A stretch of DNA of 64,000 bases from assembly GCA_016190145.1 (NCBI GenBank), contig JACPRD010000130.1, positions 6,528 to 70,527 of the forward strand, in the 5' to 3' direction. Positions 5,568-21,974 of this stretch are shown piece by piece. The first letter of the stretch is position 1; each line of letters opens with the position of its first letter. The notes under the pieces were generated by a model. It did no database searches. It had not been told where the DNA came from and saw nothing but the letters and a program-made list of their open reading frames with translations. The translations under genes and the position numbers were made by a program. The DNA is from Planctomycetota bacterium. GTDB lineage: Bacteria > Planctomycetota > MHYJ01 > WSZJ01.

Positions 5568-5710
5568 CGCGCGATGGTAACGAGGAACGGCAGGACTTAG
5601 GAGTGAGTGATGAGGGGTGAGGATCGTCTGGGGGTGGGGAGAGCGGCAGGCGGAGGCTCTCGCCTTTCCTCACCCCTCACCGCTAACTCCCAATTCCTGC
5701 AGGTCCGGAC

Positions 5711-12473: not shown

Positions 12474-12523
12474 GACCGTTCTTTCTGTAAAAGAAGAAAT
12501 CCCCTTCGAAAAAAAGGGGCGAC

Positions 12524-13045
12524 CTACGCCCCCCCCAGCAGCTTCTGCAGCTTTCCCCCGTACTTCACCACCCGCTTCATCGCCGCCGGCGACATCCTCA
12601 TGTACTCCTCGTGCGCCAGCGTCGCCGTCTCGAAGAATTCCAGCATGTCCCCCAGCCGCTTCTGCACCTCGAGCTCCGATCCCTTCCCCGCCTGCGCCAC
12701 CGCTTCCCGCAAGAGCTCCACCGTCGGGTCGATCTCGCGCCGCTTGCGCTCGTTCAGGACGACTTTGAACATGGCCCAGACGTCGCGGAAAGTCTCGAAA
12801 TGATCGCGGCGGTCGCCGAGGACGTGGACGACCTTCGCGAGGCCCCAGGCCTGGAGTTCGCGGAGAGACGTGGAGACGTTGGAGCGGGCGACGGAGAGGG
12901 TCGCGGCGATTTCCTCGGCGGCGAGGGGTTTGGAGGAGATGAAGAGGAGGGCGTGGATCTGGGCGACGGTGCGGTTGATGCCCCAGCGGGTGCCCATTTC
13001 GCCCCAGTGGAGGACGAACTTCTGCGTGGTGGGTGTGAGGTTCAT
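12524..13045 (-). CDS. GbsR/MarR-family winged-helix transcriptional regulator
   Basis: 173-aa ORF: FVLHWGEMGTRWGINRTVAQIHALLFISSKPLAAEEIAATLSVARSNVSTSLRELQAWGL. Divergent from the tRNA array. Confidence 0.75.
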   Translation of the reverse strand: MNLTPTTQKFVLHWGEMGTRWGINRTVAQIHALLFISSKPLAAEEIAATLSVARSNVSTSLRELQAWGLAKVVHVLGDRRDHFETFRDVWAMFKVVLNERKRREIDPTVELLREAVAQAGKGSELEVQKRLGDMLEFFETATLAHEEYMRMSPAAMKRVVKYGGKLQKLLGGA

Positions 13046-13061
13046 GATCCGCCTTCTGTTG

Positions 13062-13079
13062 TTTCTGTCTGTACAGAAA
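13062..13079. promoter_or_regulatory. palindrome TTTCTGT-N4-ACAGAAA next to an AT-rich patch (candidate GbsR operator / divergent promoter)
   Basis: 7-bp inverted arms at 13062-13068 and 13073-13079, 17 nt upstream of the regulator ATG. Direct TTCTGT copy at 13054-13059. ATATATGACA follows. Confidence 0.3.
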
Positions 13080-13469
13080 TATATGACACAATCCCGCCCC
13101 TGTCAAGCTCCCGCCTGGTCCCACGGATTCCCCCGAACCTTTCCACCCCCGCCCGCGATGAACTCTCTGTCGCCCGGCGCCACGGGACCGTAGGTCAACA
13201 GGAGATCGCCCGGCTGTGGCCCAGGAGACGTCGGTGCAACCCCGACCGGTCCCTTGAAAGGACGGCGCATGCCAGACGACGGAAGTGCGAATCGCCCCGA
13301 AGCGATCCCGCACCAACGATTGTCCAGACGCAGGTCCCGAAACCCGCTCGTTTGCGGGTCGAGAGGCTCTTTGACATCCGGCGGACTTTCCCAGGGCCGG
13401 CCCCCGGCCCCCATTCTCTCCCCTTCTCTCGGGGCCGGGGACCGGTCCGATTCTCTCTCTTCCCTCGCC

Positions 13470-13542
13470 TGGGGTGTCGTCTAACGGCTGAGGACGGCGG
13501 CCTCTCACGCTGCAGATGCAGGTTCAACTCCTGTCACCCCGA
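13470..13542 (+). tRNA. tRNA-Glu(CUC)
   Basis: Manual cloverleaf. Acceptor TGGGGTG/CACCCCG; D GTCT/GGAC; AC GCGGC-CTCTCAC-GCTGC (anticodon 13504-13506); T GCAGG-TTCAACT-CCTGT. No CCA. Confidence 0.8.
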
Positions 13543-13652
13543 TTCGGGAAGCGGAACGGAGGCCCGCGCTGCGGCGCCGGAGCGATGTCCCGGTATTCCC
13601 GAGGCAGTCCACCGGCGCCTCCGCGCGGGCCCCACGTTCCGCTTCCCGAATC
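13541..13652 (+). repeat. inter-tRNA GC-rich extended hairpin element H1
   Basis: 18-bp basal stem GATTCGGGAAGCGGAACG / CGTTCCGCTTCCCGAATC. Inner stems GGCCCGCGC/GCGCGGGCC and GGCGCCGG/CCGGCGCC. First nt is nt 72 of tRNA-Glu. Confidence 0.75.
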
Positions 13653-13671
13653 GGCGTAAAAAGAAAAGCAC

Positions 13672-13744
13672 GTCCTGGTAGCTCAACCAGAAGAGCGCCA
13701 GTCTCCGAAGCTGGAGGGTGCAGGCGCGAATCCTGCCCAGGACA
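13672..13744 (+). tRNA. tRNA-Arg(CCG), atypical T and D loops
   Basis: Acceptor GTCCTGG/CCAGGAC; AC CCAGT-CTCCGAA-GCTGG (anticodon 13705-13707); T GCAGG-CGCGAAT-CCTGC (C54 G55). D loop AACCAGAA lacks GG. Confidence 0.65.
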
Positions 13745-13748
13745 TCTC

Positions 13749-13819
13749 TGCGGGATGGATCAGGAGTTGATCGGCGGTCTCATAAGCCGCAAAGGAGGGT
13801 GCAAGTCCCTCTCCCGCTA
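13749..13819 (+). tRNA. tRNA-Met(CAU), initiator-like
   Basis: Acceptor TGCGGGA/TCCCGCT with a 1:72 U.U mismatch; D stem GATC/GATC (A11:U24); AC GCGGT-CTCATAA-GCCGC (anticodon 13781-13783); T GAGGG-TGCAAGT-CCCTC (G55); A73. Confidence 0.65.
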
Positions 13820-13822
13820 TCT

Positions 13823-13919
13823 TCAATTCGGGAGTCGTGAGACGCGCGCTGGACGCGAGAGGCGCGCGCAAGGTGCGCGCCTCGAGCGGCCGGCGCACGG
13901 CTCGCGACTCCCGAATTGA
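13823..13919 (+). repeat. inter-tRNA GC-rich extended hairpin element H2
   Basis: Basal stem TCAATTCGGGAGTCG / CGACTCCCGAATTGA. Inner hairpin GAGGCGCGC-GCAAGGT-GCGCGCCTC. Ends 1 nt before tRNA-Cys. Confidence 0.75.
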
Positions 13920-13920
13920 G

Positions 13921-13994
13921 GCGCGTGTGCCCGAGTGGTCGAAGGGTCCGGTTTGCAAAATCGGAATCCGCTGGTTCGAATCCAGCCGCGCGCT
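13921..13994 (+). tRNA. tRNA-Cys(GCA)
   Basis: Acceptor GCGCGTG/CGCGCGC; AC CCGGT-TTGCAAA-ATCGG (anticodon 13955-13957); T GCTGG-TTCGAAT-CCAGC. Confidence 0.85.
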
Positions 13995-14002
13995 TTCTCG
14001 CA

Positions 14003-14074
14003 CGGGCTGTAGCGCAGGGGAAGCGCGCTTCGTTGGGGTCGAAGAGGTCGGAAGTTCGAACCTTCCCAGCCCGA
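14003..14074 (+). tRNA. tRNA-Pro(GGG)
   Basis: Acceptor CGGGCTG/CAGCCCG (C1:G72); D GCGC/GCGC; AC CTTCG-TTGGGGT-CGAAG (anticodon 14035-14037); T GGAAG-TTCGAAC-CTTCC. Confidence 0.85.
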
Positions 14075-14080
14075 TATTTC

Positions 14081-14154
14081 GGGGGCGTCGTCTAGGGGCT
14101 CAGGACACCGCCCTGTCACGGCGGAGACCACGGGTTCAAATCCCGTCGCCCTCG
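14081..14154 (+). tRNA. tRNA-Asp(GUC)
   Basis: Acceptor GGGGGCG/CGCCCTC; D GTCT/GGAC; AC CCGCC-CTGTCAC-GGCGG (anticodon 14115-14117); T ACGGG-TTCAAAT-CCCGT. Confidence 0.85.
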
Positions 14155-14156
14155 TT

Positions 14157-14257
14157 TCGATGCGCGCAGCGCTCCGCAGAGGCGGCGGTCGCACGTCGGC
14201 CCGGCTGCGCCGGGCCTCGCGCGACCGCTCGCCCCTGCTACGCGCCGCGCGCATCGA
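14157..14257 (+). repeat. inter-tRNA GC-rich extended hairpin element H3 (same subfamily as H8)
   Basis: Basal stem TCGATGCGCGC / GCGCGCATCGA. Apical hairpin GGCCCGGC-TGC-GCCGGGCC. Shares the CGCTCGCCCCTGCT segment with H8. Starts 3 nt after tRNA-Asp. Confidence 0.75.
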
Positions 14258-14278
14258 CGGAACGGCAAGGAAATGCAA

Positions 14279-14351
14279 AGGGGTGTGGGCTAACCGGTAA
14301 GTCACCTCCCTGTTAAGGAGGTTGATCCAGGTTCGAATCCTGGTGCCCCTG
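14279..14351 (+). tRNA. tRNA-Asn(GUU)
   Basis: Acceptor AGGGGTG/TGCCCCT; AC CCTCC-CTGTTAA-GGAGG (anticodon 14312-14314); T CCAGG-TTCGAAT-CCTGG. Confidence 0.8.
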
Positions 14352-14363
14352 TTCGTTTTCGAA

Positions 14364-14453
14364 GGGATTCGCGCGGGTCCAGGACTGCCTGTGCCTTCGT
14401 TGAGCCAAGTTGGACCGTGACCCTGACGGGCGACGCACGGCCCGCCGAATCCC
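14364..14453 (+). repeat. degenerate inter-tRNA hairpin element H3b
   Basis: Basal stem GGGATTCG(C)GCGGG / CCCGC(C)GAATCCC with one bulge on each strand. Interior pairs only partially (GGTCC...GGACC). Confidence 0.45.
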
Positions 14454-14465
14454 CACGCAAACCAC

Positions 14466-14556
14466 GGATGGTTGGCAGAGCCCGGCTTAATGCGCCTGTC
14501 TCGAAAACAGGAGCTCCTGAAACACGGAGCCGGAGGTTCGAATCCTCCACCATCCT
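14466..14556 (+). tRNA. tRNA-Ser(CGA), class II
   Basis: Acceptor GGATGGT/ACCATCC; AC CCTGT-CTCGAAA-ACAGG (anticodon 14502-14504); long variable arm GCTCC...GGAGC; T GGAGG-TTCGAAT-CCTCC. Confidence 0.85.
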
Positions 14557-14560
14557 TCCA

Positions 14561-14649
14561 GGGGAGATGGCCGAGCGGTTGAAGGCACCGCGGTGCTAAC
14601 GCGGCGGGCCCCCTCGGGGGCCCCGAAGGTTCGAATCCTTCTCTTCCCG
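14561..14649 (+). tRNA. tRNA-Ser(GCU), class II
   Basis: Acceptor GGGGAGA/TCTTCCC; AC CCGCG-GTGCTAA-CGCGG (anticodon 14595-14597); long variable arm GGGCCCCC-TC-GGGGGCCC; T GAAGG-TTCGAAT-CCTTC. Confidence 0.85.
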
Positions 14650-14660
14650 TCCAATCTCCC

Positions 14661-14732
14661 GGGGGCGTGGCCGACCGGCAAGGCACCTGCCCGGCAGGCA
14701 GGACCACGAGGGTTCAAGTCCCTCCGCTTCCA
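14661..14732 (+). tRNA. tRNA-Ala(GGC) with C33
   Basis: Acceptor GGGGGCG/CGCTTCC including G3:U70; AC CCTGC-CCGGCAG-GCAGG (anticodon 14693-14695, position 33 = C); T GAGGG-TTCAAGT-CCCTC. Confidence 0.7.
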
Positions 14733-14744
14733 TCCGCTCGACAA

Positions 14745-14816
14745 GGGGGTGTGGCCTAACGGCAAGGCACCTGCGTCGCAAGCAGGAGTATGAGGGTTCA
14801 AATCCCTCCACTTCCA
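14745..14816 (+). tRNA. tRNA-Ala(CGC)
   Basis: Acceptor GGGGGTG/CACTTCC including G3:U70; AC CCTGC-GTCGCAA-GCAGG (anticodon 14777-14779); T GAGGG-TTCAAAT-CCCTC. Confidence 0.8.
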
Positions 14817-14821
14817 TCCGA

Positions 14822-14892
14822 AGGGGCGTCGTTCAGCAGGAGGACCCCGGTTTCCAAGTCCGGTGACGAGGGTGCAATTCCTTCCGCCCCTG
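14822..14892 (+). tRNA. tRNA-Trp(CCA), atypical T loop
   Basis: Acceptor AGGGGCG/CGCCCCT; AC CCGGT-TTCCAAG-TCCGG (31:39 U.U; anticodon 14854-14856); T GAGGG-TGCAATT-CCTTC (G55). Confidence 0.65.
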
Positions 14893-14911
14893 TTGTCAGC
14901 CCGCCGTTCCT

Positions 14912-15013
14912 CCAATTCGAGGCTTGCGGAGAGGGACGGCACGAGCGCGCCCCCGAGCGCGCAGCACGAGGGGCGTGCGCGAGCGCCGGGCCTCGCAGCG
15001 AGTTTCGAATTGG
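14912..15013 (+). repeat. inter-tRNA GC-rich extended hairpin element H4 (same subfamily as H5)
   Basis: Basal stem CCAATTCGA / TCGAATTGG, extended by G.U-rich pairing. 50-nt core at 14938-14987 is 49/50 identical to 15446-15495. Last nt is nt 1 of tRNA-Glu(UUC). Confidence 0.75.
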
Positions 15014-15083
15014 GGCGCGTCGGCTAGTGGAAGGCCCCCAGGCTTTCATCCTGACAGCGCGGGTTCGATTCCCGCCGCGCCTA
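15013..15083 (+). tRNA. tRNA-Glu(UUC)
   Basis: Acceptor GGGCGCG/CGCGCCT; AC CCAGG-CTTTCAT-CCTGA (27:43 C.A; anticodon 15045-15047); T GCGGG-TTCGATT-CCCGC. Confidence 0.8.
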
Positions 15084-15090
15084 TCTGTGA

Positions 15091-15163
15091 AGGAGCGTCG
15101 CTTAGTGGTTGAGCACCGGTTTCTTAAACCGGACGAGGAAGGGTTCGAATCCCTCCGCTCCTA
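15091..15163 (+). tRNA. tRNA-Lys(CUU)
   Basis: Acceptor AGGAGCG/CGCTCCT; AC CCGGT-TTCTTAA-ACCGG (anticodon 15123-15125); T AAGGG-TTCGAAT-CCCTC with a 49:65 A.C mismatch or a bulged A. Confidence 0.75.
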
Positions 15164-15167
15164 TCCC

Positions 15168-15239
15168 GGGGTTGTAGCTCAAAGGCCGAGCACCTGTTTT
15201 TTAAGCAGAGAGATGTGGGTTCGATCCCCACCGGCCCCA
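15168..15239 (+). tRNA. tRNA-Lys(UUU)
   Basis: Acceptor GGGGTTG/CGGCCCC; D GCTC/GAGC; AC CCTGT-TTTTTAA-GCAGA (anticodon 15200-15202); T GTGGG-TTCGATC-CCCAC. Confidence 0.8.
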
Positions 15240-15250
15240 TTCGGTCCAAG

Positions 15251-15322
15251 AGGGGAGTCAGGTAACTGGTAACCACCGAGTCCCTGAAACTCGCCATGCT
15301 GGTTCGAATCCAGCCTCCCCTA
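15251..15322 (+). tRNA. tRNA-Gln(CUG) with C33
   Basis: Acceptor AGGGGAG/CTCCCCT; AC CGAGT-CCCTGAA-ACTCG (anticodon 15284-15286, position 33 = C); T GCTGG-TTCGAAT-CCAGC. Confidence 0.7.
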
Positions 15323-15332
15323 TGAAAAACGC

Positions 15333-15403
15333 GGGCACGTAGGCTAACGGCAGGCCACCAGGTTCTCAGCCTGACAGCGAGGGTTCGATTCCCTCCGTGC
15401 CTA
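15333..15403 (+). tRNA. tRNA-Glu(CUC), paralog of the tRNA at 15013
   Basis: Acceptor GGGCACG/CGTGCCT; AC CCAGG-TTCTCAG-CCTGA (anticodon 15365-15367); T GAGGG-TTCGATT-CCCTC. Confidence 0.8.
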
Positions 15404-15419
15404 TCTGAAAGCCCTTCCT

Positions 15420-15521
15420 CTCGATTCGAGGAGCGGGAGGTGAAGGGCACGAGCGCGCCCCCGAGCGCGCAGCGCGAGGGGCGTGCGCGAGCGCCCTTCA
15501 CCGGACGCTCCTCGAATCGAG
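15420..15521 (+). repeat. inter-tRNA GC-rich extended hairpin element H5 (same subfamily as H4)
   Basis: 16-bp basal stem CTCGATTCGAGGAGCG / CGCTCCTCGAATCGAG. Inner stem GGTGAAGG/CCTTCACC encloses the conserved 50-nt core at 15446-15495. Last nt is nt 1 of tRNA-Phe. Confidence 0.8.
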
Positions 15522-15593
15522 GTGAAGTAGCTTAGACGGTCTGAGCGCCTGGTTGAAAACCAGGAGGCGGAGGTTCGATACCTCCCTTCACCA
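15521..15593 (+). tRNA. tRNA-Phe(GAA)
   Basis: Acceptor GGTGAAG/CTTCACC; AC CCTGG-TTGAAAA-CCAGG (anticodon 15555-15557); T GGAGG-TTCGATA-CCTCC. Confidence 0.85.
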
Positions 15594-15597
15594 TTGC

Positions 15598-15670
15598 GCG
15601 GGCGTCGTCCAACGGACCAGGACCCGAGACTACGAATCTCGAGATGAGGGTTCGATTCCTTCCGCCCGTA
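15598..15670 (+). tRNA. tRNA-Arg(ACG)
   Basis: Acceptor GCGGGCG/CGCCCGT; D GTCC/GGAC; AC CGAGA-CTACGAA-TCTCG (anticodon 15632-15634); T GAGGG-TTCGATT-CCTTC. Confidence 0.85.
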
Positions 15671-15673
15671 TCG

Positions 15674-15745
15674 CGGGGCGTGGCCGAGAAGAGAGGCTCC
15701 CGTTTCCTAAACGGGACCACGCAGGTGCGACTCCTGCCGTCCCGA
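15674..15745 (+). tRNA. tRNA-Arg(CCU), atypical T and D loops
   Basis: Acceptor CGGGGCG/CGTCCCG; AC CCCGT-TTCCTAA-ACGGG (anticodon 15706-15708); T GCAGG-TGCGACT-CCTGC (G55). D loop GAGAAGAGA has no GG. Confidence 0.65.
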
Positions 15746-15749
15746 CTTG

Positions 15750-15820
15750 GCTCCCGTCGTCCAGCGGAAGGGCCCCCGTCCTCTAAACGGGCGACGCAGG
15801 TTCGACCCCTGCCGGGAGCG
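15750..15820 (+). tRNA. tRNA-Arg(UCU) with C33
   Basis: Acceptor GCTCCCG/CGGGAGC; AC CCCGT-CCTCTAA-ACGGG (anticodon 15782-15784, position 33 = C); T GCAGG-TTCGACC-CCTGC. Confidence 0.7.
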
Positions 15821-15828
15821 TCATCCAA

Positions 15829-15909
15829 GGGCGTGTACGGAATGGGATAACCGCGCCGGCCGTAACCCGGCAGCCTCGCGCTTAGAAGGTTCGAGTCCTT
15901 CCGCGCCCA
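15829..15909 (+). tRNA. tRNA-Tyr(GUA), class II, with C33
   Basis: Acceptor GGGCGTG/CGCGCCC; AC GCCGG-CCGTAAC-CCGGC (anticodon 15862-15864, position 33 = C); 13-nt variable arm; T GAAGG-TTCGAGT-CCTTC. Confidence 0.75.
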
Positions 15910-15947
15910 TTGATCACGAGAGACTTCCAGGAAATGCTTTGCCTCCC

Positions 15948-16066
15948 AGAGTTTGAGAGAAAACCGGGATGGGGGGCGGAGTCGGCCGGCTCGTCCAGTC
16001 CCGGCCGCATCGTGGGCCTTCCTGCCGGCCGACGGAGCATCCCAGCCCGGTTTTCTCTCAAACTCT
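15948..16066 (+). repeat. inter-tRNA extended hairpin element H6
   Basis: Perfect 21-bp basal stem AGAGTTTGAGAGAAAACCGGG / CCCGGTTTTCTCTCAAACTCT. Inner stem GTCGGCCGG/CCGGCCGAC. Ends 1 nt before tRNA-Gly(GCC). Confidence 0.8.
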
Positions 16067-16067
16067 T

Positions 16068-16139
16068 GCGGCTGTAGCTCAACGGCAGAGCGCCACGTTG
16101 CCAACGTGGATACTGCGGGTTCAAGCCCCGCCAGTCGCT
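16068..16139 (+). tRNA. tRNA-Gly(GCC)
   Basis: Acceptor GCGGCTG/CAGTCGC; D GCTC/GAGC; AC CCACG-TTGCCAA-CGTGG (anticodon 16100-16102); T GCGGG-TTCAAGC-CCCGC. Confidence 0.85.
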
Positions 16140-16145
16140 TTCTTT

Positions 16146-16219
16146 CAGGACGTAGCGGAGCCTGGTAACGCGCTTCGTTCGGGGCGAAGAGACCGGTGGT
16201 TCGAATCCACCCGTCCTGA
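16146..16219 (+). tRNA. tRNA-Pro(CGG)
   Basis: Acceptor CAGGACG/CGTCCTG (C1:G72); AC CTTCG-TTCGGGG-CGAAG (anticodon 16180-16182, G37); T GGTGG-TTCGAAT-CCACC. Confidence 0.85.
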
Positions 16220-16235
16220 TTTTCTCGGCAGACGC

Positions 16236-16308
16236 GCTTCTGTAGCCCAACGGAAGAGGCACCAAGCTCAGAACTTGGCGAGTGGAGGTTCGAATCCTCC
16301 CGGAAGCA
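16236..16308 (+). tRNA. class I (short variable arm) tRNA with Leu anticodon CAG
   Basis: Acceptor GCTTCTG/CGGAAGC; D arm TAGCCCAACGGAAGAGGC; AC CCAAG-CTCAGAA-CTTGG (anticodon 16269-16271); variable region only 5 nt (CGAGT); T GGAGG-TTCGAAT-CCTCC; A73. Confidence 0.7.
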
Positions 16309-16324
16309 TTTTGAATCTCAGAAC

Positions 16325-16395
16325 GGTCTCGTAGCTCAAAGGCAGAGCGCCGGTCTCACATACCGGTGACGGAGGTTCGAGTCCTTCCGGGACCA
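16325..16395 (+). tRNA. tRNA-Val(CAC)
   Basis: Acceptor GGTCTCG/CGGGACC; D GCTC/GAGC; AC CCGGT-CTCACAT-ACCGG (anticodon 16357-16359); T GGAGG-TTCGAGT-CCTTC. Confidence 0.85.
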
Positions 16396-16405
16396 TGGAC
16401 ACACG

Positions 16406-16477
16406 GCTCCTGTGGTCTAGCGGCCGGGCACCAGCGCGACATGCTGGGCAAGGCAGGTTCGACTCCTGCCGGGAGCA
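16406..16477 (+). tRNA. tRNA-Val(GAC) with G32 C33
   Basis: Acceptor GCTCCTG/CGGGAGC; AC CCAGC-GCGACAT-GCTGG (anticodon 16438-16440, position 33 = C); T GCAGG-TTCGACT-CCTGC. Confidence 0.7.
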
Positions 16478-16483
16478 CTTCAT

Positions 16484-16554
16484 GCCTCTCTAGTTCAATG
16501 GGAGAACCCCTGCTTCCCACGCAGGTGACGAGGGATCGATACCCTCGAGAGGCT
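16484..16554 (+). tRNA. tRNA-Gly(CCC), A54 T loop
   Basis: Acceptor GCCTCTC/GAGAGGC; D GTTC/GAAC; AC CCTGC-TTCCCAC-GCAGG (anticodon 16516-16518); T GAGGG-ATCGATA-CCCTC. Confidence 0.75.
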
Positions 16555-16558
16555 CTTG

Positions 16559-16629
16559 GCGCCTGTAGCTCAAGGGGAGAGCCCCCGCCCGATAAGCGGG
16601 AGATGCAGGTTCAAGTCCTGACTGGCGCA
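16559..16629 (+). tRNA. tRNA-Ile(GAU) with C33; two stem mismatches
   Basis: Acceptor GCGCCTG/CTGGCGC (6:67 U.U); AC CCCGC-CCGATAA-GCGGG (anticodon 16591-16593, position 33 = C); T GCAGG-TTCAAGT-CCTGA (49:65 G.A). Confidence 0.6.
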
Positions 16630-16673
16630 TTGAGACCCGGGAGGAGTTCCCGGACCGACTGCCTCGGCATCCC

Positions 16674-16775
16674 AGAGCGCGTGAACGATTCGATTGGAGG
16701 CGCGCGGCCGGGGCGAGCGACGCGAAGCGGCGCCAGGTCCGGCCCCCGCCGGAGATCGAGTCGTTCACGCGCTCT
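16674..16775 (+). repeat. inter-tRNA GC-rich extended hairpin element H7
   Basis: 15-bp basal stem AGAGCGCGTGAACGA / TCGTTCACGCGCTCT, continued by TTCGAT/ATCGAG pairing. The 3' arm overlaps the first 5 nt of tRNA-Thr (16771-16775). Confidence 0.75.
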
Positions 16776-16841
16776 TGTAGCTCAACGGTGAGCACCTGCC
16801 TCGTAAGCAGGGGGATGTGGGTTCGATTCCCACCAGGAGCT
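16771..16841 (+). tRNA. tRNA-Thr(CGU)
   Basis: Acceptor GCTCTTG/CAGGAGC; D GCTC/GAGC; AC CCTGC-CTCGTAA-GCAGG (anticodon 16802-16804); T GTGGG-TTCGATT-CCCAC. Confidence 0.85.
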
Positions 16842-16843
16842 TC

Positions 16844-16938
16844 GGAATCGCGCGCGCTTCGCAGGGGCGGCTCGCGCACGGCGGCCGGGCTTCGCCCGGC
16901 CTGGCGCGCTCGCTCGCCCCTGCTGCGCGCGCGATTTC
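16844..16938 (+). repeat. inter-tRNA GC-rich extended hairpin element H8 (same subfamily as H3)
   Basis: Basal stem GGAATCGCGCGCGC / GCGCGCGCGATTTC. Also GCAGGGGCG/CGCCCCTGC. Apical hairpin GGCCGGGC-TTC-GCCCGGCC. Starts 3 nt after tRNA-Thr. Confidence 0.8.
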
Positions 16939-16967
16939 GAAAAGGGAAAGGCGCCGGGAAGGAGAAG

Positions 16968-17040
16968 GCTCTCGTAGCCCAACGGCAGAGGCGGCGGTCT
17001 CAAGAACCGCGCGGTGCAGGTTCGAATCCTGCCGGGAGCA
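16968..17040 (+). tRNA. class I (short variable arm) tRNA with Leu anticodon CAA
   Basis: Acceptor GCTCTCG/CGGGAGC; D arm TAGCCCAACGGCAGAGGC; AC GCGGT-CTCAAGA-ACCGC (anticodon 17001-17003); 5-nt variable region (GCGGT); T GCAGG-TTCGAAT-CCTGC; A73. Confidence 0.7.
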
Positions 17041-17050
17041 TCGAAGAAAC

Positions 17051-17125
17051 GCCCTCGTAGCCCAATCTGGCAGAGGCCCATGGTTGAGGGCCATGGTGGT
17101 GATGGTTCGATTCCATCCGAGGGCA
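17051..17125 (+). tRNA. class I (short variable arm) tRNA with Leu anticodon GAG
   Basis: Acceptor GCCCTCG/CGAGGGC; D arm TAGCCCAATCTGGCAGAGGC; AC CATGG-TTGAGGG-CCATG (anticodon 17086-17088); 5-nt variable region (GTGGT); T GATGG-TTCGATT-CCATC; A73. Confidence 0.7.
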
Positions 17126-17248
17126 TCAGCCTGAGCAGTCTGAATTCGAACAAGACATCTGGCACTTCCTGAGGGGAAACCGTCGGAGAGTTCGGAAGTA
17201 GCCTGAGGTGCTCTCTGCAGGGAACGAACTATCCGCTTCGGCGAAGCC

Positions 17249-19810
17249 CTAAAGCCGCGGATCGACCGGCTCGCTTTCCAGTGCCAGGACGCCGAAAACA
17301 CATTCGTGGACGCGGCGAAGCGGCTCGTTGCGGACGAAACGCTCGAGCCCCTCGACTCCGAGGGCGAACTCCCTCATCGCAAGAGAACGCTTCGCGCCGA
17401 GGCCGCGGGAGCGGAGCCGACTCAGGTTCGCGGGGATCGAGTAGTCCGGGCCATAGATGATGCGGAGGTACTCGGGTCCGCGGCACTTGACGGCTGGTTG
17501 AGCGACTCCCCTCCGCCCCCGCGCGACGAAGTCCAGCGGCTTTACGACCATTCCCTCTCCACCGCGCGAAGTCAGTTCCTCCCACCAGCGGATCCCCGCC
17601 TGTTCGCTGGCCTCATCTGTGACATTGACCTCGATGAAACCGGTCTCGATGAGGATCTTGCTTCCCTTGCAGAATCGGGAGATGGCGCTCATGTGCCACA
17701 GGTGGTTCTTGTCGAAATACGTTTTCCCCTCGGTGGCCAGCACGTGGAACGGCGCCAGCTTGATGTCCGCCAGCGTCTTGACCGGCCAGCAGTACCCGCG
17801 ATAGGCGGTCACGTATTTCTCGGCGAGAGAAGCGCGTTCGACCGAGCGTTCCAGCAGCGAGGCGACGTCAGCTCCCCGCGCTGCTGCCGTTTTCAGTGTT
17901 TCGACCGAGTCCCTCAGCGCTGCCCCTGACGCCGCCCCGACGGCCGCGTACTGCCGCTTCACCAGCTCCTGGGCCTTCGCCGACCATGGCATCAGTTCGC
18001 AATCGAGGCAGACCCAATCCGTGTCGAATTCCTTCCAGGATTCTGAGCGGTCCAGCGCTTCCCGCAGATGCGCCAGCAGCTCTGTCTCAAACGCGAGATC
18101 TTCGAAGAAGCGGCGCCCGGTGCGAGTCACGCAGATGCCGCTTTCACTGACGATTCCGAATCTGCGACGGGCTGCGTCTTCATTGCGACAAAGCACCACG
18201 ACGACCCGTGATCCCATGTGCTTCTCTTCGCACAGCACCTGCGGAATTCCCTCGTGCCGGAAGTACGCGAAGGCCTGCGCCGGATGCTCCAGCAGACTCC
18301 CCTCCTGCGAGGTCTCCGGCGGCGACATGGTCGGCGGAAGGTAGATCAGCCACTTCGGGTTGGCTGCAAAGCGGCTCATGACCTCGAGCGCGGCGATCGC
18401 GTTCTCTTCGCGGATCGTCACGTTGTGATGGAGGCGCGTCGTCACGATCCTCTTCCCGATCACGTCCGCGAGGTCGAGCAGGTCGTCGTGGGCCTGCTGC
18501 GGGGAGAGCGCCTGAGTCTGGAATTCCGCCGGATGGAAGGGCTTCGCCGGTTTCGCGTACATGGCGCCCGCGGGGACTGAAACAAGCTCCTTCTCCGGGT
18601 AGCGAAGCGCCGTGAGCTTGCCGCCGAAAACGCAGCCGGTATCGATGTTGATCGTGTTGTTGAGCCACTCGGGCGCCGGCACGGGCGTGTGTCCGTAGAC
18701 GACCATGGACGGCCCGCGATACTCCGCGGCCCAGTTGTTGCGGACCGGCAGGCCGAATTCGTCGGTCTCCCCCGTCGTCTCGCCGTAGAGTGCGAACTCC
18801 CGCACCTTGCCGGAGCCTCGACCCTGCATGGTCTCTTTCATCCCGGCGTGCGCCACGACGAGCCCGTTGTCGTCGAGCACGTAGTGGGAGACCAGGTCGT
18901 CAATGAAGGCGGCCGTCTTCTCGCGAAATGCCGCCGGTTCGCGGTCCAGCTGCGCGAGGGATTCGGCAAGACCGTGGGTGATCTGCACGTCCTTGCCGCG
19001 GAGTTTCCGGAGCAGCTTGACGTCGTGGTTTCCCGGGACGCAAAGCGCGGTCCCGGCCTCCACCATGCCCATCACGAGCCGCAGCACGTCCGGAGTGTTC
19101 GGTCCACGATCGACGAGATCGCCCACGAAGACTGCTTTGCGATTCCCGGGCGGCTTCGCGGCAATTGTGCGCTCCCCAGTCGTCGTCACGTCGACGACAT
19201 ACCCGAGACGCTCAAGAAGCGCCTTCGTCTCGTCGAAGCAGCCGTGAATGTCCCCGATGATGTCGAACGGGCCATGATCGCTCTTCCGGTTGTTCCACAA
19301 CGGCTCTCGCTCGATGGTTGCCGCATCGATCTCTTCCGGGCTTGCCAGAACGTGGACGTGCCGGAAGCCTTCAACCTGAAGGTTCCGGAGCGATTTGCGA
19401 AGCTGCTGCGACTGCTGCCGGATGACATGTGGACCGAACGTGCGCTCACTACGCCCGCGGTTGCGGTCCTGGCACAGCCGTTCCGGAAGGTCCAGCACGA
19501 TCGCGACGGGCAGGCAATGGTAGTCCCGGGCCAGCGCGACGAGGGGTTTGCGCGCTTCGGCCTGGACGTTCGTCGCATCGATGACGGTGAGCTTGCCCGC
19601 CGCCAGGCGTTTTCCGGCGATGTAGTGCAGCACCTCAAAGGCCGCGTTCGTGGCAGCTTGATTGTTCTCGTCGTCCGACACGAGGCCGCGGCAGAAGTCT
19701 GAGGACAGGATCTCCGTCGGGAGAAAGTGCTTCCGCCCGAACGTGGACTTCCCGCTGCCCGAGGGGCCGATCAGGACAACGAGGGACAGCTCAGGTATTT
19801 TCAGTTTCAC
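17249..19810 (-). CDS. pnkp: polynucleotide kinase-phosphatase/ligase Pnkp (RNA repair)
   Basis: ORF 17249..19918 trimmed to GTG 19810, which overlaps the hen1 TGA (GTGA). Kinase P-loop GPSGSGKST. Metallophosphoesterase motifs GDIHGC, GDLVDRGP, GNHD. Nucleotidyltransferase-type Lys motif EEKHMGSR in the C-terminal ligase-like domain. 853 aa. Confidence 0.85.
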   Translation of the reverse strand: MKLKIPELSLVVLIGPSGSGKSTFGRKHFLPTEILSSDFCRGLVSDDENNQAATNAAFEVLHYIAGKRLAAGKLTVIDATNVQAEARKPLVALARDYHCLPVAIVLDLPERLCQDRNRGRSERTFGPHVIRQQSQQLRKSLRNLQVEGFRHVHVLASPEEIDAATIEREPLWNNRKSDHGPFDIIGDIHGCFDETKALLERLGYVVDVTTTGERTIAAKPPGNRKAVFVGDLVDRGPNTPDVLRLVMGMVEAGTALCVPGNHDVKLLRKLRGKDVQITHGLAESLAQLDREPAAFREKTAAFIDDLVSHYVLDDNGLVVAHAGMKETMQGRGSGKVREFALYGETTGETDEFGLPVRNNWAAEYRGPSMVVYGHTPVPAPEWLNNTINIDTGCVFGGKLTALRYPEKELVSVPAGAMYAKPAKPFHPAEFQTQALSPQQAHDDLLDLADVIGKRIVTTRLHHNVTIREENAIAALEVMSRFAANPKWLIYLPPTMSPPETSQEGSLLEHPAQAFAYFRHEGIPQVLCEEKHMGSRVVVVLCRNEDAARRRFGIVSESGICVTRTGRRFFEDLAFETELLAHLREALDRSESWKEFDTDWVCLDCELMPWSAKAQELVKRQYAAVGAASGAALRDSVETLKTAAARGADVASLLERSVERASLAEKYVTAYRGYCWPVKTLADIKLAPFHVLATEGKTYFDKNHLWHMSAISRFCKGSKILIETGFIEVNVTDEASEQAGIRWWEELTSRGGEGMVVKPLDFVARGRRGVAQPAVKCRGPEYLRIIYGPDYSIPANLSRLRSRGLGAKRSLAMREFALGVEGLERFVRNEPLRRVHECVFGVLALESEPVDPRL

Positions 19811-21204
19811 CGCGAGAACACCGCCATCTGGGTAGGCGCGCCGACGACGGCGTCCTCGGGGCCGACCGGAAGAATCCGAACTTGATACCCGGCACGGCTG
19901 GCGACACGTTCCGCCCACGCTCTGAAATCAACGCGCGACCATTCGAACCGGTGGTCCTTGTGACGAAACTGGCCGGCAGGAAGCGTCTCGAACTTCACGT
20001 TGTAGTCCGAGTTCGGCGTCGTGAGGACTACGAACCTGGGCTTCGCGTGCTCGAACAGCACGCGCTCGAACGCGTCGAGGCGACCCGGGTCCAGATGTTC
20101 CACGACCTCGATCAGTGCCGCGGCGTCGAACCCCTCGAGACGCTTGTCGCGATAGGTCAGCGATCCCTGGATGAGCTGCAGGCGCGCCTTCTGGATGTCC
20201 GGCATCCGCTCGAGCTTGAGCTTGTCACTCGCGAACTCGAGCGCGCGATGCGAGACGTCCATCCCCAGCACGCGCTCGAAGGTCTTGTCGGCCAGCAGGT
20301 CTCTGAGAAGACGGCCCTCGCCGCATCCGAGGTCCATGACGCTTTTCGCGCCCACTTCTCGAAGCACGGCGACGACTGCCCCCATCCGATGATCGTGAAG
20401 CCGGATCTTCTCTTCCAGCCCAGCTTCCTGCCTTGCCTGATTCTCCCGTGTCGATTCCAGTTCTTCGAGATCGTCGTCCACCAGCCGGGACAACGCGTCG
20501 CGACACAGGTCCCGCCGGTGCTTGAGGTAGCGACGGGCAATCGCGTCCTTCTCCGGATGCCCCGCCAGCCAGCCCTCGCCATGACGAAGCAGTTTCTCGA
20601 CCTCGTCCTCACCGACCCAGTAGTGCTTTGAGTTGTCCAGCACCGGAACCAGCACGTAGAGGTGGCTCAGCAGCTCTTGGAGCATGCGCGTGCCCTGGAG
20701 GTGGAGCGTGAAGTACACACTGTCGCCCCATTCCGGAAAGGTCGGGTCGAGGGAGTGCGGTTCGACGCTGACACGATAGCCGAGCGGCTCGAAGAGAGAC
20801 CGCAGGAACGCCTCGCCGCCGCGGCAGGGGATGACCGAGAGCGTGGCTTCAAGTTTCAGGGGCTTTGACGCCAGCTCCGGCCTCTCCTTGCTTCGCCCGG
20901 CGAGCGCGGAGCCGAAGATCTGCGCGATCGCGACGCTCAGGAACGAAGAAGCAACGTAGGGCCGATCATTCACGTACTGGTCGAGCGAGTGGCCTTCGCC
21001 GCTGCCGGGCTTCCCCCGCACGAGGCCGATCGGGTCGATCTCGAGCAGGAGCGCTGCCGTGCAGCGCTGCTCCGCCGCTTCGGGGTAGAAGACGTGCGCT
21101 TTGCCGAATGAAAGGTCGAAGGACTGCGCGCGAGCAGGATTCTTGTGAAGGAGAAACCCCAGATCCGTGGCTGGAAACGTGGAAGTGGTGATGGTGAGCA
21201 ACAT
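19807..21204 (-). CDS. hen1: RNA 3'-terminal ribose 2'-O-methyltransferase Hen1
   Basis: 465-aa ORF. N-terminus MLLTITTSTFPATDLGFLLHKNPAR is typical of bacterial Hen1. C-terminal SAM motif VMDLGCGEGRLL. Immediately upstream of, and coupled to, pnkp. Confidence 0.85.
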   Translation of the reverse strand: MLLTITTSTFPATDLGFLLHKNPARAQSFDLSFGKAHVFYPEAAEQRCTAALLLEIDPIGLVRGKPGSGEGHSLDQYVNDRPYVASSFLSVAIAQIFGSALAGRSKERPELASKPLKLEATLSVIPCRGGEAFLRSLFEPLGYRVSVEPHSLDPTFPEWGDSVYFTLHLQGTRMLQELLSHLYVLVPVLDNSKHYWVGEDEVEKLLRHGEGWLAGHPEKDAIARRYLKHRRDLCRDALSRLVDDDLEELESTRENQARQEAGLEEKIRLHDHRMGAVVAVLREVGAKSVMDLGCGEGRLLRDLLADKTFERVLGMDVSHRALEFASDKLKLERMPDIQKARLQLIQGSLTYRDKRLEGFDAAALIEVVEHLDPGRLDAFERVLFEHAKPRFVVLTTPNSDYNVKFETLPAGQFRHKDHRFEWSRVDFRAWAERVASRAGYQVRILPVGPEDAVVGAPTQMAVFSR

Positions 21205-21450
21205 GGGGGCAGAGTGTAATCGAGCGAGACTGTATTACGGTTCAGACCTTCCGGGTCGAGCAACGTCGAATGCGTGTCTGGCCTGTTCGATCGGAAGCTC
21301 TGGCGGAGGCGGGCGCGCGGGGATTCGAGTCCGTCCCACACTCGGCCAGAGTCGCGGCGAGGAGCGTCGCGAAGACACAGGAAGACCGGGGAATCATGTC
21401 GGGGATGAACGATGCGGCTATTTGGAAGTTCTCGACGAACTGCGGGGGAA

Positions 21451-21963
21451 TCAGGCCTTGCCCCGCGCTTTGCCAGCGCGCGCCTTCTTCGCCGCCGGCT
21501 TCCCCTTCTTTCTGCCCGCCAGCATCCCCTCGACCGCCGCGACGTACTTCTTCGCGGGCACCCGCCGGATCGCCTTCCCGATGACGTCGAGCGGAATGTC
21601 CTCGACGCTCGTGAACCGGATGCAGGCCTTGCCCATGTCGAGCTTCTTGCCCGATTTCGCCCAGGCCTCGCGGAACCACGCGGCCTCGCCGGCGTTGCCG
21701 TAGACGGACATGAGGTAGAGAGACAGGTAGTTTTTCTGGGAAGCGAGCATGGCGAACCCGAGGGGCTGCTTCGGGTCGCAGTGGTATCCGGCGGGATAGA
21801 CGCGGTGCGGCACGTAGTAGCAGATCATGCCGTACTGCATTCCCTCCTCGTAGTCCTTGTCGAGGTTGGCGAGGATCAGCTTGCGGACGGCCTCGAGCGC
21901 CTTGCGCCGGTCGGCAGGAAGCGCGGCGAGGTAGGCGGCGACGGTCTTCGCGGACGAAGGCAT
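21451..21963 (-). CDS. DUF1801 (YdhG-like) domain protein with Lys-rich tail
   Basis: C-terminal part of ORF 21451..24723 from ATG 21963 (MPSSAKTVAAYLAALPADRRKALEAVRKLI...). The upstream part of that ORF is an out-of-frame shadow of the molybdoenzyme gene. Confidence 0.65.
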   Translation of the reverse strand: MPSSAKTVAAYLAALPADRRKALEAVRKLILANLDKDYEEGMQYGMICYYVPHRVYPAGYHCDPKQPLGFAMLASQKNYLSLYLMSVYGNAGEAAWFREAWAKSGKKLDMGKACIRFTSVEDIPLDVIGKAIRRVPAKKYVAAVEGMLAGRKKGKPAAKKARAGKARGKA

Positions 21964-21974
21964 GGGCAGGGCTC

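Follow-up and report, generated by a model that had tools for sequence, protein, structure and literature searches.

Long tRNA arrays are rare outside the Firmicutes, and the main question that such a locus raises is whether the genes are functional and what purpose they serve. We have addressed this question for an array found in a 64-kb stretch of DNA (64,000 nucleotides, hereafter the window) from the metagenome-assembled chromosome of a Planctomycetota bacterium. The array consists of 33 co-oriented tRNA genes on the + strand, between positions 13184 and 17125, with 32 anticodons and all 20 amino acids. It is a real, long-lived long tRNA array, located at a fixed chromosomal position in at least three related genomes. 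As for its purpose, we lean, without great assurance, towards a supernumerary "L-array", i.e., one that would provide a reserve set of tRNAs rather than the everyday one.

Inventory of the array

With default settings ARAGORN detected 31 tRNA genes, all on the + strand and within 13470-17125. The Rfam model RF00005 also accepted 31 genes at its gathering threshold, among them Trp(CCA) at 14822-14892, overlooked by ARAGORN in its default mode, and tRNA-His(GTG) at 13184-13254. The combination of both gives the 33 genes listed below. Gln(CTG) reached 43.3 bits when RF00005 was run in E-value mode with permissive filters, and Tyr(GTA) was the sole member that failed this model, being supported by ARAGORN alone. 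When the ARAGORN threshold was slightly lowered (-ps95), cloverleaves were obtained for 33 of the 33 genes. The initial annotation had listed 32 tRNA genes on the + strand, and their order and anticodons all match this union, with the covariance model refusing only Tyr(GTA). It was mistaken in stating that tRNA-His was lacking and that 19 amino acids plus an initiator were covered: tRNA-His(GTG), with 49.9 bits, lies 215 nt upstream of the point where the array had been taken to start, and therefore all 20 amino acids are represented. In agreement with the same annotation, no elongator Met tRNA was found in the array by ARAGORN or Rfam; the single CAT tRNA carries a U1.U72 mismatch and A11:U24 and is therefore initiator-like. 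CCA is encoded by none of the 33 genes, as had also been noted. The order of the genes follows no repeating (periodic) pattern. Neither ARAGORN nor RF00005 found a tRNA gene in the remaining ~60 kb of the window, and Rfam found no rRNA in it. A tRNA array unit is described by Tran et al. 2016 (PMC4758250) as a region with at least 20 tRNA genes and at least 2 per kb; the 33 genes, at a density of 8.4 per kb over 13184-17125, fall within this description on both counts.

The members of the array are as follows (bits are RF00005 scores; ARAGORN stands for default settings unless -ps95 is given):
13184..13254, +, tRNA-His(GTG); 49.9 bits, ARAGORN -ps95
13470..13542, +, tRNA-Glu(CTC); ARAGORN, 51.0 bits
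13672..13744, +, tRNA-Arg(CCG); ARAGORN, 62.1 bits; T-loop CGCGAAT, D-loop without GG
13749..13819, +, tRNA-Met(CAT), initiator-like; ARAGORN, 47.8 bits; T-loop TGCAAGT
13921..13994, +, tRNA-Cys(GCA); ARAGORN, 58.7 bits; U73
14003..14074, +, tRNA-Pro(GGG); ARAGORN, 61.7 bits
14081..14154, +, tRNA-Asp(GTC); ARAGORN, 60.6 bits; G73
14279..14351, +, tRNA-Asn(GTT); ARAGORN, 58.4 bits; 93.6% identity to its orthologue in the Hainich relative (L288, see below)
14466..14556, +, tRNA-Ser(CGA), class II; ARAGORN, 53.1 bits
14561..14649, +, tRNA-Ser(GCT), class II; ARAGORN, 52.3 bits
14661..14732, +, tRNA-Ala(GGC); ARAGORN, 49.8 bits; G3.U70, C33
14745..14816, +, tRNA-Ala(CGC); ARAGORN, 63.8 bits; G3.U70
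14822..14892, +, tRNA-Trp(CCA); 45.1 bits, ARAGORN -ps95; T-loop TGCAATT
15013..15083, +, tRNA-Glu(TTC); ARAGORN, 56.1 bits
15091..15163, +, tRNA-Lys(CTT); ARAGORN, 53.9 bits
15168..15239, +, tRNA-Lys(TTT); ARAGORN, 59.1 bits
15251..15322, +, tRNA-Gln(CTG); ARAGORN, 43.3 bits (E-value mode); C33
15333..15403, +, tRNA-Glu(CTC), second copy; ARAGORN, 58.8 bits; 83% identity to Glu(TTC)
15521..15593, +, tRNA-Phe(GAA); ARAGORN, 70.2 bits
15598..15670, +, tRNA-Arg(ACG); ARAGORN, 56.2 bits
15674..15745, +, tRNA-Arg(CCT); ARAGORN, 47.3 bits; T-loop TGCGACT, D-loop without GG
15750..15820, +, tRNA-Arg(TCT); ARAGORN, 50.8 bits; C33; without orthologue in either related array
15829..15909, +, tRNA-Tyr(GTA); ARAGORN only; 81 nt, shortened variable arm, C33
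16068..16139, +, tRNA-Gly(GCC); ARAGORN, 67.4 bits; U73
16146..16219, +, tRNA-Pro(CGG); ARAGORN, 60.8 bits
16236..16308, +, tRNA-Leu(CAG), type I; ARAGORN, 60.2 bits; 5-nt variable loop, A73, D-arm GTAGCCCAACGGAAGAGGC
16325..16395, +, tRNA-Val(CAC); ARAGORN, 68.1 bits
16406..16477, +, tRNA-Val(GAC); ARAGORN, 39.7 bits; C33
16484..16554, +, tRNA-Gly(CCC); ARAGORN, 58.6 bits; T-loop ATCGATA
16559..16629, +, tRNA-Ile(GAT); ARAGORN, 54.9 bits; C33
16771..16841, +, tRNA-Thr(CGT); ARAGORN, 67.0 bits
16968..17040, +, tRNA-Leu(CAA), type I; ARAGORN, 55.4 bits; A73
17051..17125, +, tRNA-Leu(GAG), type I, last member; ARAGORN, 49.7 bits; A73

Orthologous arrays at the same chromosomal locus

In a large protein collection we found two close relatives (94 and 89% identity) of the Pnkp protein that is encoded beside the array. 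The first belongs to contigs of up to 462 kb from Hainich groundwater (L288/L303), which carry an orthologous array of 34 tRNA genes in nearly the same order. A small open reading frame (ORF) beside the Hainich array, used as a handle, led to the second flank of that array and to a third genome, L296, a 119.7-kb ENA contig of a metagenome-assembled genome (MAG) with locus tag FD180_ and a 33-gene array. The comparisons that follow involve the window and these two relatives. On its left the array is bordered in all three genomes by Peptidase_C92 ... DCC1/MBOAT - MarR, and on its right by a shared backbone (hypothetical protein - zinc-ribbon protein - FtsK), so that the array must already have been at this locus in their common ancestor. 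The lineages are well separated: the FtsK protein of the window is 72% identical to that of Hainich (72-83% across the three genomes), and the backbone DNA of the window shows 70-72% identity to both relatives, which are 85-86% identical to each other. The content of the array has changed to some extent. The window has Pro(GGG) and Arg(TCT) and lacks Gln(TTG), Gly(TCC) and Pro(TGG), the reverse being true of the two relatives, and Ala(GGC) is missing from the array of one of them. The slot of Pro(GGG) is taken in both by a Pro(TGG) that is merely 58% identical. In a fourth relative (L295) the contig stops 2.6 kb beyond the backbone, with no tRNA within that stretch. The small ORF, located in the relatives between MarR and tRNA-His, has a homologue beside mreB in another Planctomycete (L299-L302; GCA_964590435.1, Logan contigs), with 84% identity over 56% of its length and no tRNAs nearby.

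These data bear on the possibility that the array is the cargo of an integrated mobile element or prophage remnant, to which it would chiefly be of use (for anti-defence or codon supply), the host being just a passive carrier. A link to phages or integrative and conjugative elements (ICEs) had been hinted at in the initial annotation, horizontal spread and residence on plasmids, phages or ICEs have been reported for L-arrays, and the type I body of the tRNA-Leu described below is typical of phage tRNA clusters. Besides, the G+C content falls to 61-66% over 12500-22000 (MarR, array, pnkp-hen1 and DUF1801), against 68-76% on either side, and the adjoining hen1-pnkp cassette is clearly mobile. 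Against this, both flanks are syntenic backbone in the three genomes, and no integrase, transposase, phage or conjugation gene appeared among the ~40 proteins of the window scanned with Pfam, so that the hint finds no support there. The genes are ordinary chromosomal ones (RimO, FtsK, triose-phosphate isomerase, YicC, an ABC transporter, glycosyltransferases and a Ser/Thr kinase). The proteins of the window are found as well in Logan assemblies of SRR12113390. No similar array was found in phage and plasmid collections, where blastn in distant mode gave single-tRNA matches covering at most 3% of the query. The gene order is not common to any of 120 viral loci carrying type I tRNA-Leu, and the best identities of the array tRNAs to 872 viral tRNAs were 68-81%. 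Finally, the anticodons are tuned to a high-GC host (the G+C content of the window is 68%). We consider a mobile cargo improbable.

Selection on the cloverleaves and rate of evolution

Comparing the 32 orthologous pairs of the window and Hainich arrays, 535 of 659 stem pairs were unchanged, 28 had changed on one side while still pairing, 67 showed compensatory changes and 29 were broken, some of these probably being alignment artefacts. The other two genome comparisons gave 56 and 17 compensatory stem pairs. Even tRNA-Tyr(GTA), the member that fails RF00005, has an orthologue with 81% identity and three compensatory pairs. Because of these compensatory changes we regard the genes as being under selection for the cloverleaf.

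The acceptor ends tell the same story when examined with published identity rules (PMC9976931). Both tRNA-Ala keep G3.U70 and A73; U73 is found in Cys and Gly, G73 in Asp, Asn and Trp, C1-G72/A73 in Pro, and A73 in Leu, Val, Phe, Lys, Tyr and Met. Furthermore, the discriminator is followed by T (position 74) in 30 of the 33 genes, in a region with 17% T (p = 5e-20), and in 28 of the 34 genes of the Hainich array. In one relative, a dispersed tRNA-Ser is likewise CCA-less with U74. Uracils at positions 74-76 are said to activate RNase Z. This enzyme cleaves CCA-less precursors directly after the discriminator base (PMC8549757).

The array could in principle be a decaying, non-functional relic, as its many departures from the tRNA consensus, the failure of Tyr with RF00005 and the single mismatches in several stems might indicate. 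The compensatory changes in all three comparisons, the conserved identity elements and the T74 signal lead us to reject such a pseudo-array, and the oddities are themselves conserved; a relic is therefore highly improbable.

Mean identity between orthologues was 81-84% for the window against the other arrays (range 58-100%) and 90.9% between the two closer genomes. As a control, the ordinary tRNA-Thr(CGU) of three soil loci, a single tRNA, was 100% identical among them with flanks 80-83% identical, in agreement with general experience. On this comparison the array tRNAs evolve several times faster than ordinary tRNAs.

Unorthodox features of the array tRNAs

The initial annotation had described a rare large array of deviant tRNAs, and rightly so. 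Array tRNAs score on average 56.0 bits with RF00005 (54.3 in the array of a relative), some 11 bits below the 67.4 of eight ordinary dispersed tRNAs taken from fetched bacterial loci (p = 8e-4). The three tRNA-Leu (CAG, CAA and GAG) have a 5-nt variable loop and A73, both conserved across arrays, measure 73-75 nt in the window and fit the definition of type I tRNA-Leu (Leu anticodon with a variable loop of 4-5 nt). The tRNA-His is the first member in the orthologous arrays too (93% identical). It has C at position -1, lacking G-1, together with U73; its T-loop reads TGCAACC, and its anticodon stem contains a C.A mismatch. C-1 and U73 are the same across arrays. Instead of the near-universal U33, C33 is found in 6 of 33 tRNAs of the window and 11 of 34 in the Hainich relative, four of them (Ala-GGC, Tyr, Val-GAC and Ile) common to both. 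This amounts to 17 of 67 array tRNAs against 24 of 860 sampled phage tRNAs (p = 2e-10). T-loops with G55 (TGC, or CGC in Arg-CCG of the window) characterize His, Arg-CCG, Met, Trp and Arg-CCT, are conserved across arrays and go together with D-loops in which GG is missing or displaced. The array keeps thus a series of features that textbooks deem nearly forbidden, i.e., C33, G55, a tRNA-His lacking G-1 and tRNA-Leu devoid of the long arm, and offers natural test substrates for the specificity of synthetases, RNases P and Z and anticodon nucleases.

The D-arm GTAGCCCAACGGNAGAGGC of the array tRNA-Leu is also present in at least 120 viral contigs of IMG/VR (L162-L281). Among the matches listed, 113 of 119 viral tRNAs carrying it have a Leu anticodon (TAA, TAG, CAA, GAG, AAG or CAG) and measure 72-78 nt, and they are often located inside phage tRNA clusters of up to 35 genes (examples of type I loci are L162 3109-3184, L186 3026-3122 and L225 1472-3396). 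Annotated tRNA-Leu of Streptomyces and Corynebacterium phages match the array tRNA-Leu at 82-88%. A literature search retrieved no paper describing a phage family of type I tRNA-Leu with this D-arm. Among cellular genomes, Streptomyces coelicolor has one type I tRNA-Leu(CAA), charged by its own LeuRS and not by that of Escherichia coli (PMC6614811).

A tRNA-like gene with an 8-nt anticodon loop (ARAGORN "tatg"; L288 18879-18954, the same as L303 13480-13555) sits between Tyr and Gly(TCC) in the Hainich array, where the window has the hairpin spacer S7 described below. Possible identities of this gene are an Ile(UAU)-like tRNA, a tRNA of the frameshift type or a pseudogene.

A reserve or an everyday set

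In order to relate the array to its host, we examined 15,996 codons of 31 genes of the window under standard wobble rules. The 32 anticodons read 94.2% of them. The unreadable 5.8% comprises ACC (1.6%), UCC (1.4%), GGA (1.1%), GCA and ten rarer codons. Since ACC, UCC and GGA cannot be read by the array, other tRNA genes must exist. In addition, the turnover of members among the arrays means that at least one genome must obtain each of the anticodons concerned from genes located elsewhere, which points to dispersed tRNA copies and to array copies that may be redundant. Fast evolution, low scores, incomplete decoding and member turnover are the reasons why we favour, by a modest preference, a supernumerary L-array. 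The earlier view of an accessory rather than housekeeping set is favoured, rather than demonstrated, by these same four points.

Such an array would probably keep translation going once the normal tRNA pool has been depleted or cleaved, under translational stress or by tRNA-targeting toxins. The unorthodox loops could make its tRNAs poor substrates for tRNA-cleaving nucleases, in the way in which phage tRNAs escape anticodon nucleases via loop changes (PMC10264068). The neighbouring hen1-pnkp tRNA-repair genes would fit this theme of tRNA damage, though they are a later, mobile arrival.

Several observations weigh against the supernumerary L-array. L-arrays have been described as supernumerary, present in Planctomycetes among others, patchy and horizontally spread (Santamaria-Gomez et al. 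2021, PMC8421152), and this contrasts with the stable, vertical inheritance at one locus in three lineages found here. The anticodon set fits the codon usage of the host closely, as expected for a working main set. Since a type I tRNA-Leu can be the sole, ordinary isoacceptor for its codon in S. coelicolor, type I tRNA-Leu alone is no proof of accessory status. Also, the third genome with an array does not have hen1-pnkp linked to it, and among species-representative genomes none of the nearest 80 pnkp loci, whose identity is 72% at most, carries an array.

The alternative is that this clade of Planctomycetes draws most of its tRNAs from the array, as their main and non-redundant source, with only readers of A-ending codons and a few others (Thr-GGU, Ser-GGA, elongator Met and Ile2) encoded elsewhere. 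More than 95% of Leu codons would then be read by type I tRNA-Leu, and the tRNA-His in use would lack G-1. Conservation of locus and order in genomes whose FtsK proteins have diverged to 72-83%, the strong structural selection on the cloverleaves and the 94.2% of codons read, with missing anticodons that are almost exactly the U34 set, are what one would expect from it. So are the peculiarities of His, Met and Leu, conserved in all arrays, the housekeeping type I tRNA-Leu of S. coelicolor and the dispersed tRNA-Ser of a relative that is equally CCA-less with U74. On the other hand, the orthologues diverge far faster than an ordinary tRNA at similar genome divergence, RF00005 scores are low and C33 toggles freely between lineages. 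Moreover, not every array has Arg-TCT, Gln-TTG, Gly-TCC, Pro-GGG/TGG and Ala-GGC, which hence must be supplied elsewhere too, and no sigma-70-type promoter lies upstream of the array although the adjoining MarR gene has a near-consensus one. We hold a main set to be unlikely, if deserving of serious consideration.

Proposed promoter, leader and processing signals

Two features precede the bulk of the array:
13135..13163, +, promoter-like motif GAACCTT-N17-TGAAC, 21-49 nt upstream of tRNA-His
13255..13469, +, structured His-Glu spacer with a 5' multi-helix domain, an 18-bp hairpin (13394-13448) and a T-rich run

The motif, in the form GAACCTT-N16/17-T(G/C)AA(C/A), ends ~20 nt before tRNA-His with the same spacing in all three genomes. 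It is unique in the window, with 0.03 occurrences expected by chance, although the pattern was derived post hoc. The sigma-E promoter of E. coli is GGAACTT-N16-TCAAA, and we take the motif to resemble the promoters of extracytoplasmic function (ECF) sigma factors. No sigma-70-type site was found upstream of the array on the + strand. The window does encode an ECF-type sigma factor (50946-54146, +), in which Sigma70_r2 and r4 are fused to ~850 residues of CarboxypepD_reg/Big_1 repeats, with a paralogous repeat protein at 56601-59234; nothing links this factor to the motif.

A consensus fold of the His-Glu spacer over the three genomes includes 9 pairs with compensatory change, and the spacer of the window gave a terminator-like match. 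The U-run after the 18-bp hairpin is strong in L303 and L296 and weaker in the window, and no room is left for a promoter between the hairpin and Glu. The hairpin could be either a conditional terminator gating the other 32 genes or one more processing hairpin. The ECF-like motif and the terminator-like leader are no more than hints that the array might be silent during normal growth and induced by translational stress.

Judging from these motifs, transcription might start at the conserved, ECF-like rather than sigma-70 promoter upstream of tRNA-His, and the structured leader with its terminator-like hairpin might gate read-through into the other 32 genes. The resulting polycistronic precursor would be cut by RNase P at the 5' ends and by RNase Z at the 3' ends, and CCA would be added after the RNase Z cut at the discriminator/U74. 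The long palindromic spacers would be lineage-specific insertions that double as double-stranded processing or insulating sites.

Palindromic spacers

The initial annotation had distinguished two classes of spacers, and this distinction holds: they measure either 2-16 nt or 100-158 nt, and the one that follows His measures 215 nt. Of the nine long inter-tRNA spacers, eight form hairpins of ~40-50 bp, with z values of -3.6 to -12.8 relative to dinucleotide shuffles, and the ninth (S4) is weak:
13543..13650, +, spacer hairpin S1; -85.4 kcal/mol, z -8.0; directly 3' of the Glu discriminator, followed by an A-rich linker
13823..13919, +, spacer hairpin S2; -84 kcal/mol, z -12.8; end flush with the 5' end of tRNA-Cys
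14157..14258, +, spacer hairpin S3; z -7.0; paralogue of S9
14355..14462, +, spacer S4; weak hairpin GGGATTCG...CGAATCCC, z just -2.0
14913..15012, +, spacer hairpin S5; z -3.6; flush with the 5' end of Glu(TTC); core paralogous to S6
15421..15520, +, spacer hairpin S6; -82.8 kcal/mol, z -7.7; flush with the 5' end of tRNA-Phe
15948..16066, +, spacer hairpin S7; z -5.9; stops 1 nt before tRNA-Gly(GCC), where the relatives have Gly(TCC)
16679..16770, +, spacer hairpin S8; z -4.4; flush with the 5' end of tRNA-Thr; absent in L288
16842..16940, +, spacer hairpin S9; z -4.9; directly 3' of the Thr discriminator; absent in L288 and L296

Hairpins S1, S3 and S9 begin immediately 3' of a discriminator base, and S2, S5, S6, S7 and S8 end flush with the 5' end of the following tRNA. 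Many have the base (G/A)ATTCG(CGCG)...CGAAT(C/T), and the array palindromes carry ATTCGCGCG ends. Their occurrence differs between genomes. The Met-Cys junction measures 6 nt in L288 and 100 nt both in the window (S2) and in L296, where the hairpin sequence is different. The Ile-Thr spacer has 141 nt in the window and 3 nt in L288, and the Thr-Leu spacer 126 nt in the window, 12 nt in L288 and 4 nt in L296. A hairpin between Cys and Pro, with a nearly perfect stem of ~40 bp, is found in the Hainich array only, and the Asp-Asn junction has a hairpin in all three genomes. The only spacer families common between genomes are the orthologous His-Glu and Asp-Asn ones. Within genomes, the cores of S5 and S6 are 98% identical over 50 nt, S3 and S9 83% over 77 nt, and the Ala-Ala and Arg-Tyr spacers of L288 96%. 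S5 and S6 bracket exactly a five-gene block whose internal order differs from that of the relatives.

Similar hairpins were not found elsewhere in the window, and Rfam gave no known RNA family in the spacers, only sub-threshold, meaningless microRNA matches. We have also considered a single oriented hairpin family across all spacers, which gave poor alignments, the within-genome pairs S5/S6, S3/S9 and Ala-Ala/Arg-Tyr of L288 being the only related ones. An integron-like cassette array does not fit either: there is no integrase, and the hairpins occupy 9 of 32 junctions and abut either 3' or 5' tRNA ends. A search for the hairpin cores in viral contigs retrieved a few chance matches in GC-rich coding DNA without tRNAs. 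With low to moderate confidence, we suggest that the spacers are lineage-specific palindromic insertions that spread within the array and may act at the RNA level as RNase III entry sites or insulators. S6 holds both strands of the tRNA-Phe acceptor stem (GGTGAAG ... CTTCACC) around a GC-rich core, which could be due to chance or be a trace of the origin of the palindrome.

A bolder proposal would be that the array is the principal tRNA set of the clade and that the flush-ended ATTCG...CGAAT palindromes are undescribed elements homing to tRNA ends and reshuffling the array. If this were true, nearly all Leu codons would be decoded by type I tRNA-Leu, tRNA-His would work without G-1 and with U73, and C33 and G55 would be tolerated in many working tRNAs. 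We regard this combination as quite unlikely.

The hen1-pnkp cassette

Beyond the last tRNA gene, and convergent with the array at a distance of 123 nt, lies a pair of genes:
17249..19810, -, pnkp (polynucleotide kinase-phosphatase/ligase); Pfam AAA_33 + Metallophos + PNKP_ligase; TIGR04075 1430 bits (cut-off 750)
19807..21204, -, hen1 (RNA 3'-terminal 2'-O-methyltransferase); Pfam Hen1_L; TIGR04074 729 bits (cut-off 340)

The hen1 gene is upstream of pnkp, and its stop overlaps the pnkp start. One operon contains thus the kinase, phosphatase and ligase domains together with Hen1, the components of the Pnkp/Hen1 RNA repair system, which reportedly reseals tRNAs cleaved by ribotoxins. The GC3 of both genes is 0.79, compared with 0.85-0.93 in neighbouring genes.

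What is shared with the relatives is the two genes plus ~20 nt on each side (window 17226-21223; L288 8607-12499; L292 6314-10269). The nucleotide identity of this cassette is 88.6% to L288 and 83.9% to the other copy, while the backbone shows ~72-77%. Its position also varies: 3' of Leu(GAG) in the window; between Leu(CAA) and Leu(GAG), with DUF4132 and KAP NTPase, in Hainich; and, in a fourth lineage, beside a standalone tRNA-Ser(TGA) at a distance of 43 nt, the contig concerned also bearing a tyrosine integrase (Phage_integrase). Because the identity is far above that of the backbone and the position varies among genomes, hen1-pnkp appears to be a recently mobile cassette that has landed repeatedly beside tRNA genes, to which it is adjacent in four Planctomycete contexts. 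A general linkage between pnkp and tRNA arrays was rejected, the 80 pnkp loci mentioned above having no array. The adjacency to the array is secondary, and may be due to targeted integration or selected linkage.

Other genes and repeats of the window

On the left, the array has as its neighbour in all three genomes a divergent regulator:
12524..13045, -, MarR-family regulator (Pfam MarR_2)

It probably heads its own operon, with the DCC1/MBOAT membrane protein downstream. It has a near-consensus sigma-70 promoter at 13106-13078 (TTGACA-17-TATATT, 11 of 12 matches), which is overlapped by a palindrome, TTCTGT...CTGTACAGAAA (13046-13110), probably the MarR operator. A dedicated role of MarR as regulator of the array was considered and discarded. 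Eighty metagenome loci with MarR homologues (57-66% identity) carry no arrays, and its own promoter and operon make it a backbone neighbour and not demonstrably a regulator.

About 5 kb from the array there may be a defence locus, formed by a DEDDh exonuclease (7612-8166, +; full-length match to the PADLOC "Effector Exonuclease", 3.5e-69) and a 1199-aa protein (1968-5567, -) with a Pycsar-like cyclase domain, an AAA ATPase and TPR repeats. A homologue of the exonuclease (37% identity; L163 6822-7403) is located ~4 kb from the matched tRNA-Leu in a tRNA-rich locus with 17 tRNAs, from a 235-kb viral contig. Between the cyclase-AAA-TPR gene and the gene next to it there is an inverted repeat with 40-nt arms (5584-5706), probably a terminator. 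Two intergenic runs of short repeats (43510-43767 and 45974-46078) form long inverted arms unrelated to the array hairpins, whose units have ~7 nt (CCACTGG) on the right and 14 nt (GTGACCAGTTGCCx) on the left; the arms at 43510-43767 have 100 nt each and are 81% complementary.

Comparison with known systems

A close parallel is the trn operon of Anabaena sp. PCC 7120, which also has dozens of co-oriented functional tRNA genes with short spacers and no periodicity, in a phylum whose tRNA genes are normally dispersed. L-arrays are described (PMC8421152) as potential operons of neighbouring tRNA genes in one direction, far longer than arrays that grew by accretion, in phyla dominated by stand-alone genes. 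In agreement with this description, the window array has genes in the same direction, spacers of 2-215 nt that are within or below the phylum-specific thresholds of 200-1000 bp, 33 genes in a non-periodic order and a host phylum listed with L-arrays. The Anabaena array remains silent as long as translation is not impaired, its induction is accompanied by that of hen1-pnkP and rtcB, and rtcB is physically linked to L-arrays in other cyanobacteria (PMC8421152). An RNA-repair neighbour is therefore another likeness, rtcB there and hen1-pnkp here. However, the Anabaena operon is plasmid-borne, linked to an HNH homing endonuclease and described as horizontally spread, whereas the window array lies on the chromosome, with synteny in three lineages and no endonuclease in its vicinity. 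Redundancy and inducibility have been demonstrated there, and a term search of that paper (PMC8421152) gave no report of hairpin spacers, type I tRNA-Leu or C33.

The tRNA array units of Mycobacterium (Morgado and Vicente 2018; Mycobacterium avium linear plasmids, PMC12803027) resemble the array in having ~30-40 clustered tRNA genes with variant D, anticodon and variable arms, and a role against tRNA-targeting defences has been proposed for them. They differ by residing on plasmids, phages or mobile regions of some strains only, and share neither sequence nor order with the array. Phage tRNA clusters (T4/T5-like phages, mycobacteriophage C1, IMG/VR jumbo phages) are dense too, with up to 35 tRNAs, have the same type I tRNA-Leu body with D-arm GTAGCCCAACGGNAGAGGC and show anticodon-loop deviations thought to evade anticodon nucleases. 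But there are no phage genes in the window, tRNA identities to viral members stay at the values given above and the order is not shared; besides, many of the viral tRNAs retrieved encode CCA and keep G-1/C73 in tRNA-His, neither of which the window array does.

The rrn-linked operons of Firmicutes ("A-type", housekeeping) also join many tRNAs per transcription unit and may likewise form an everyday set; those operons are canonical, highly conserved and attached to rRNA, while here there is no rRNA and the genes are deviant and fast-evolving. The type I tRNA-Leu(CAA) of S. coelicolor (PMC6614811), also bacterial, has a short variable loop as well and is charged by the LeuRS of its host, but it is one of five isoacceptors, whereas all three tRNA-Leu of the array are type I. 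With the bacterial Pnkp/Hen1 system the neighbouring genes share full-length equivalog matches and the hen1-pnkp operon order. In the 80 loci examined that system has no array as neighbour, and here it is a transferred cassette at the 3' end of the array in two lineages, with different insertion points.

Gain and loss of spacers, together with the landings of the repair cassette, lead to hypotheses on the processing and rearrangement of arrays and on their link to tRNA damage. Three orthologous arrays at increasing divergence reveal, through their compensatory changes, long-term selection at a chromosomal locus, and this retention contrasts with the prevailing picture of transient, horizontally moving arrays. 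Long tRNA arrays are a known class, and the array is an unusual variant of it by its fixed chromosomal position, purifying selection, conserved suite of non-canonical features, mobile palindromic spacers and conserved leader.

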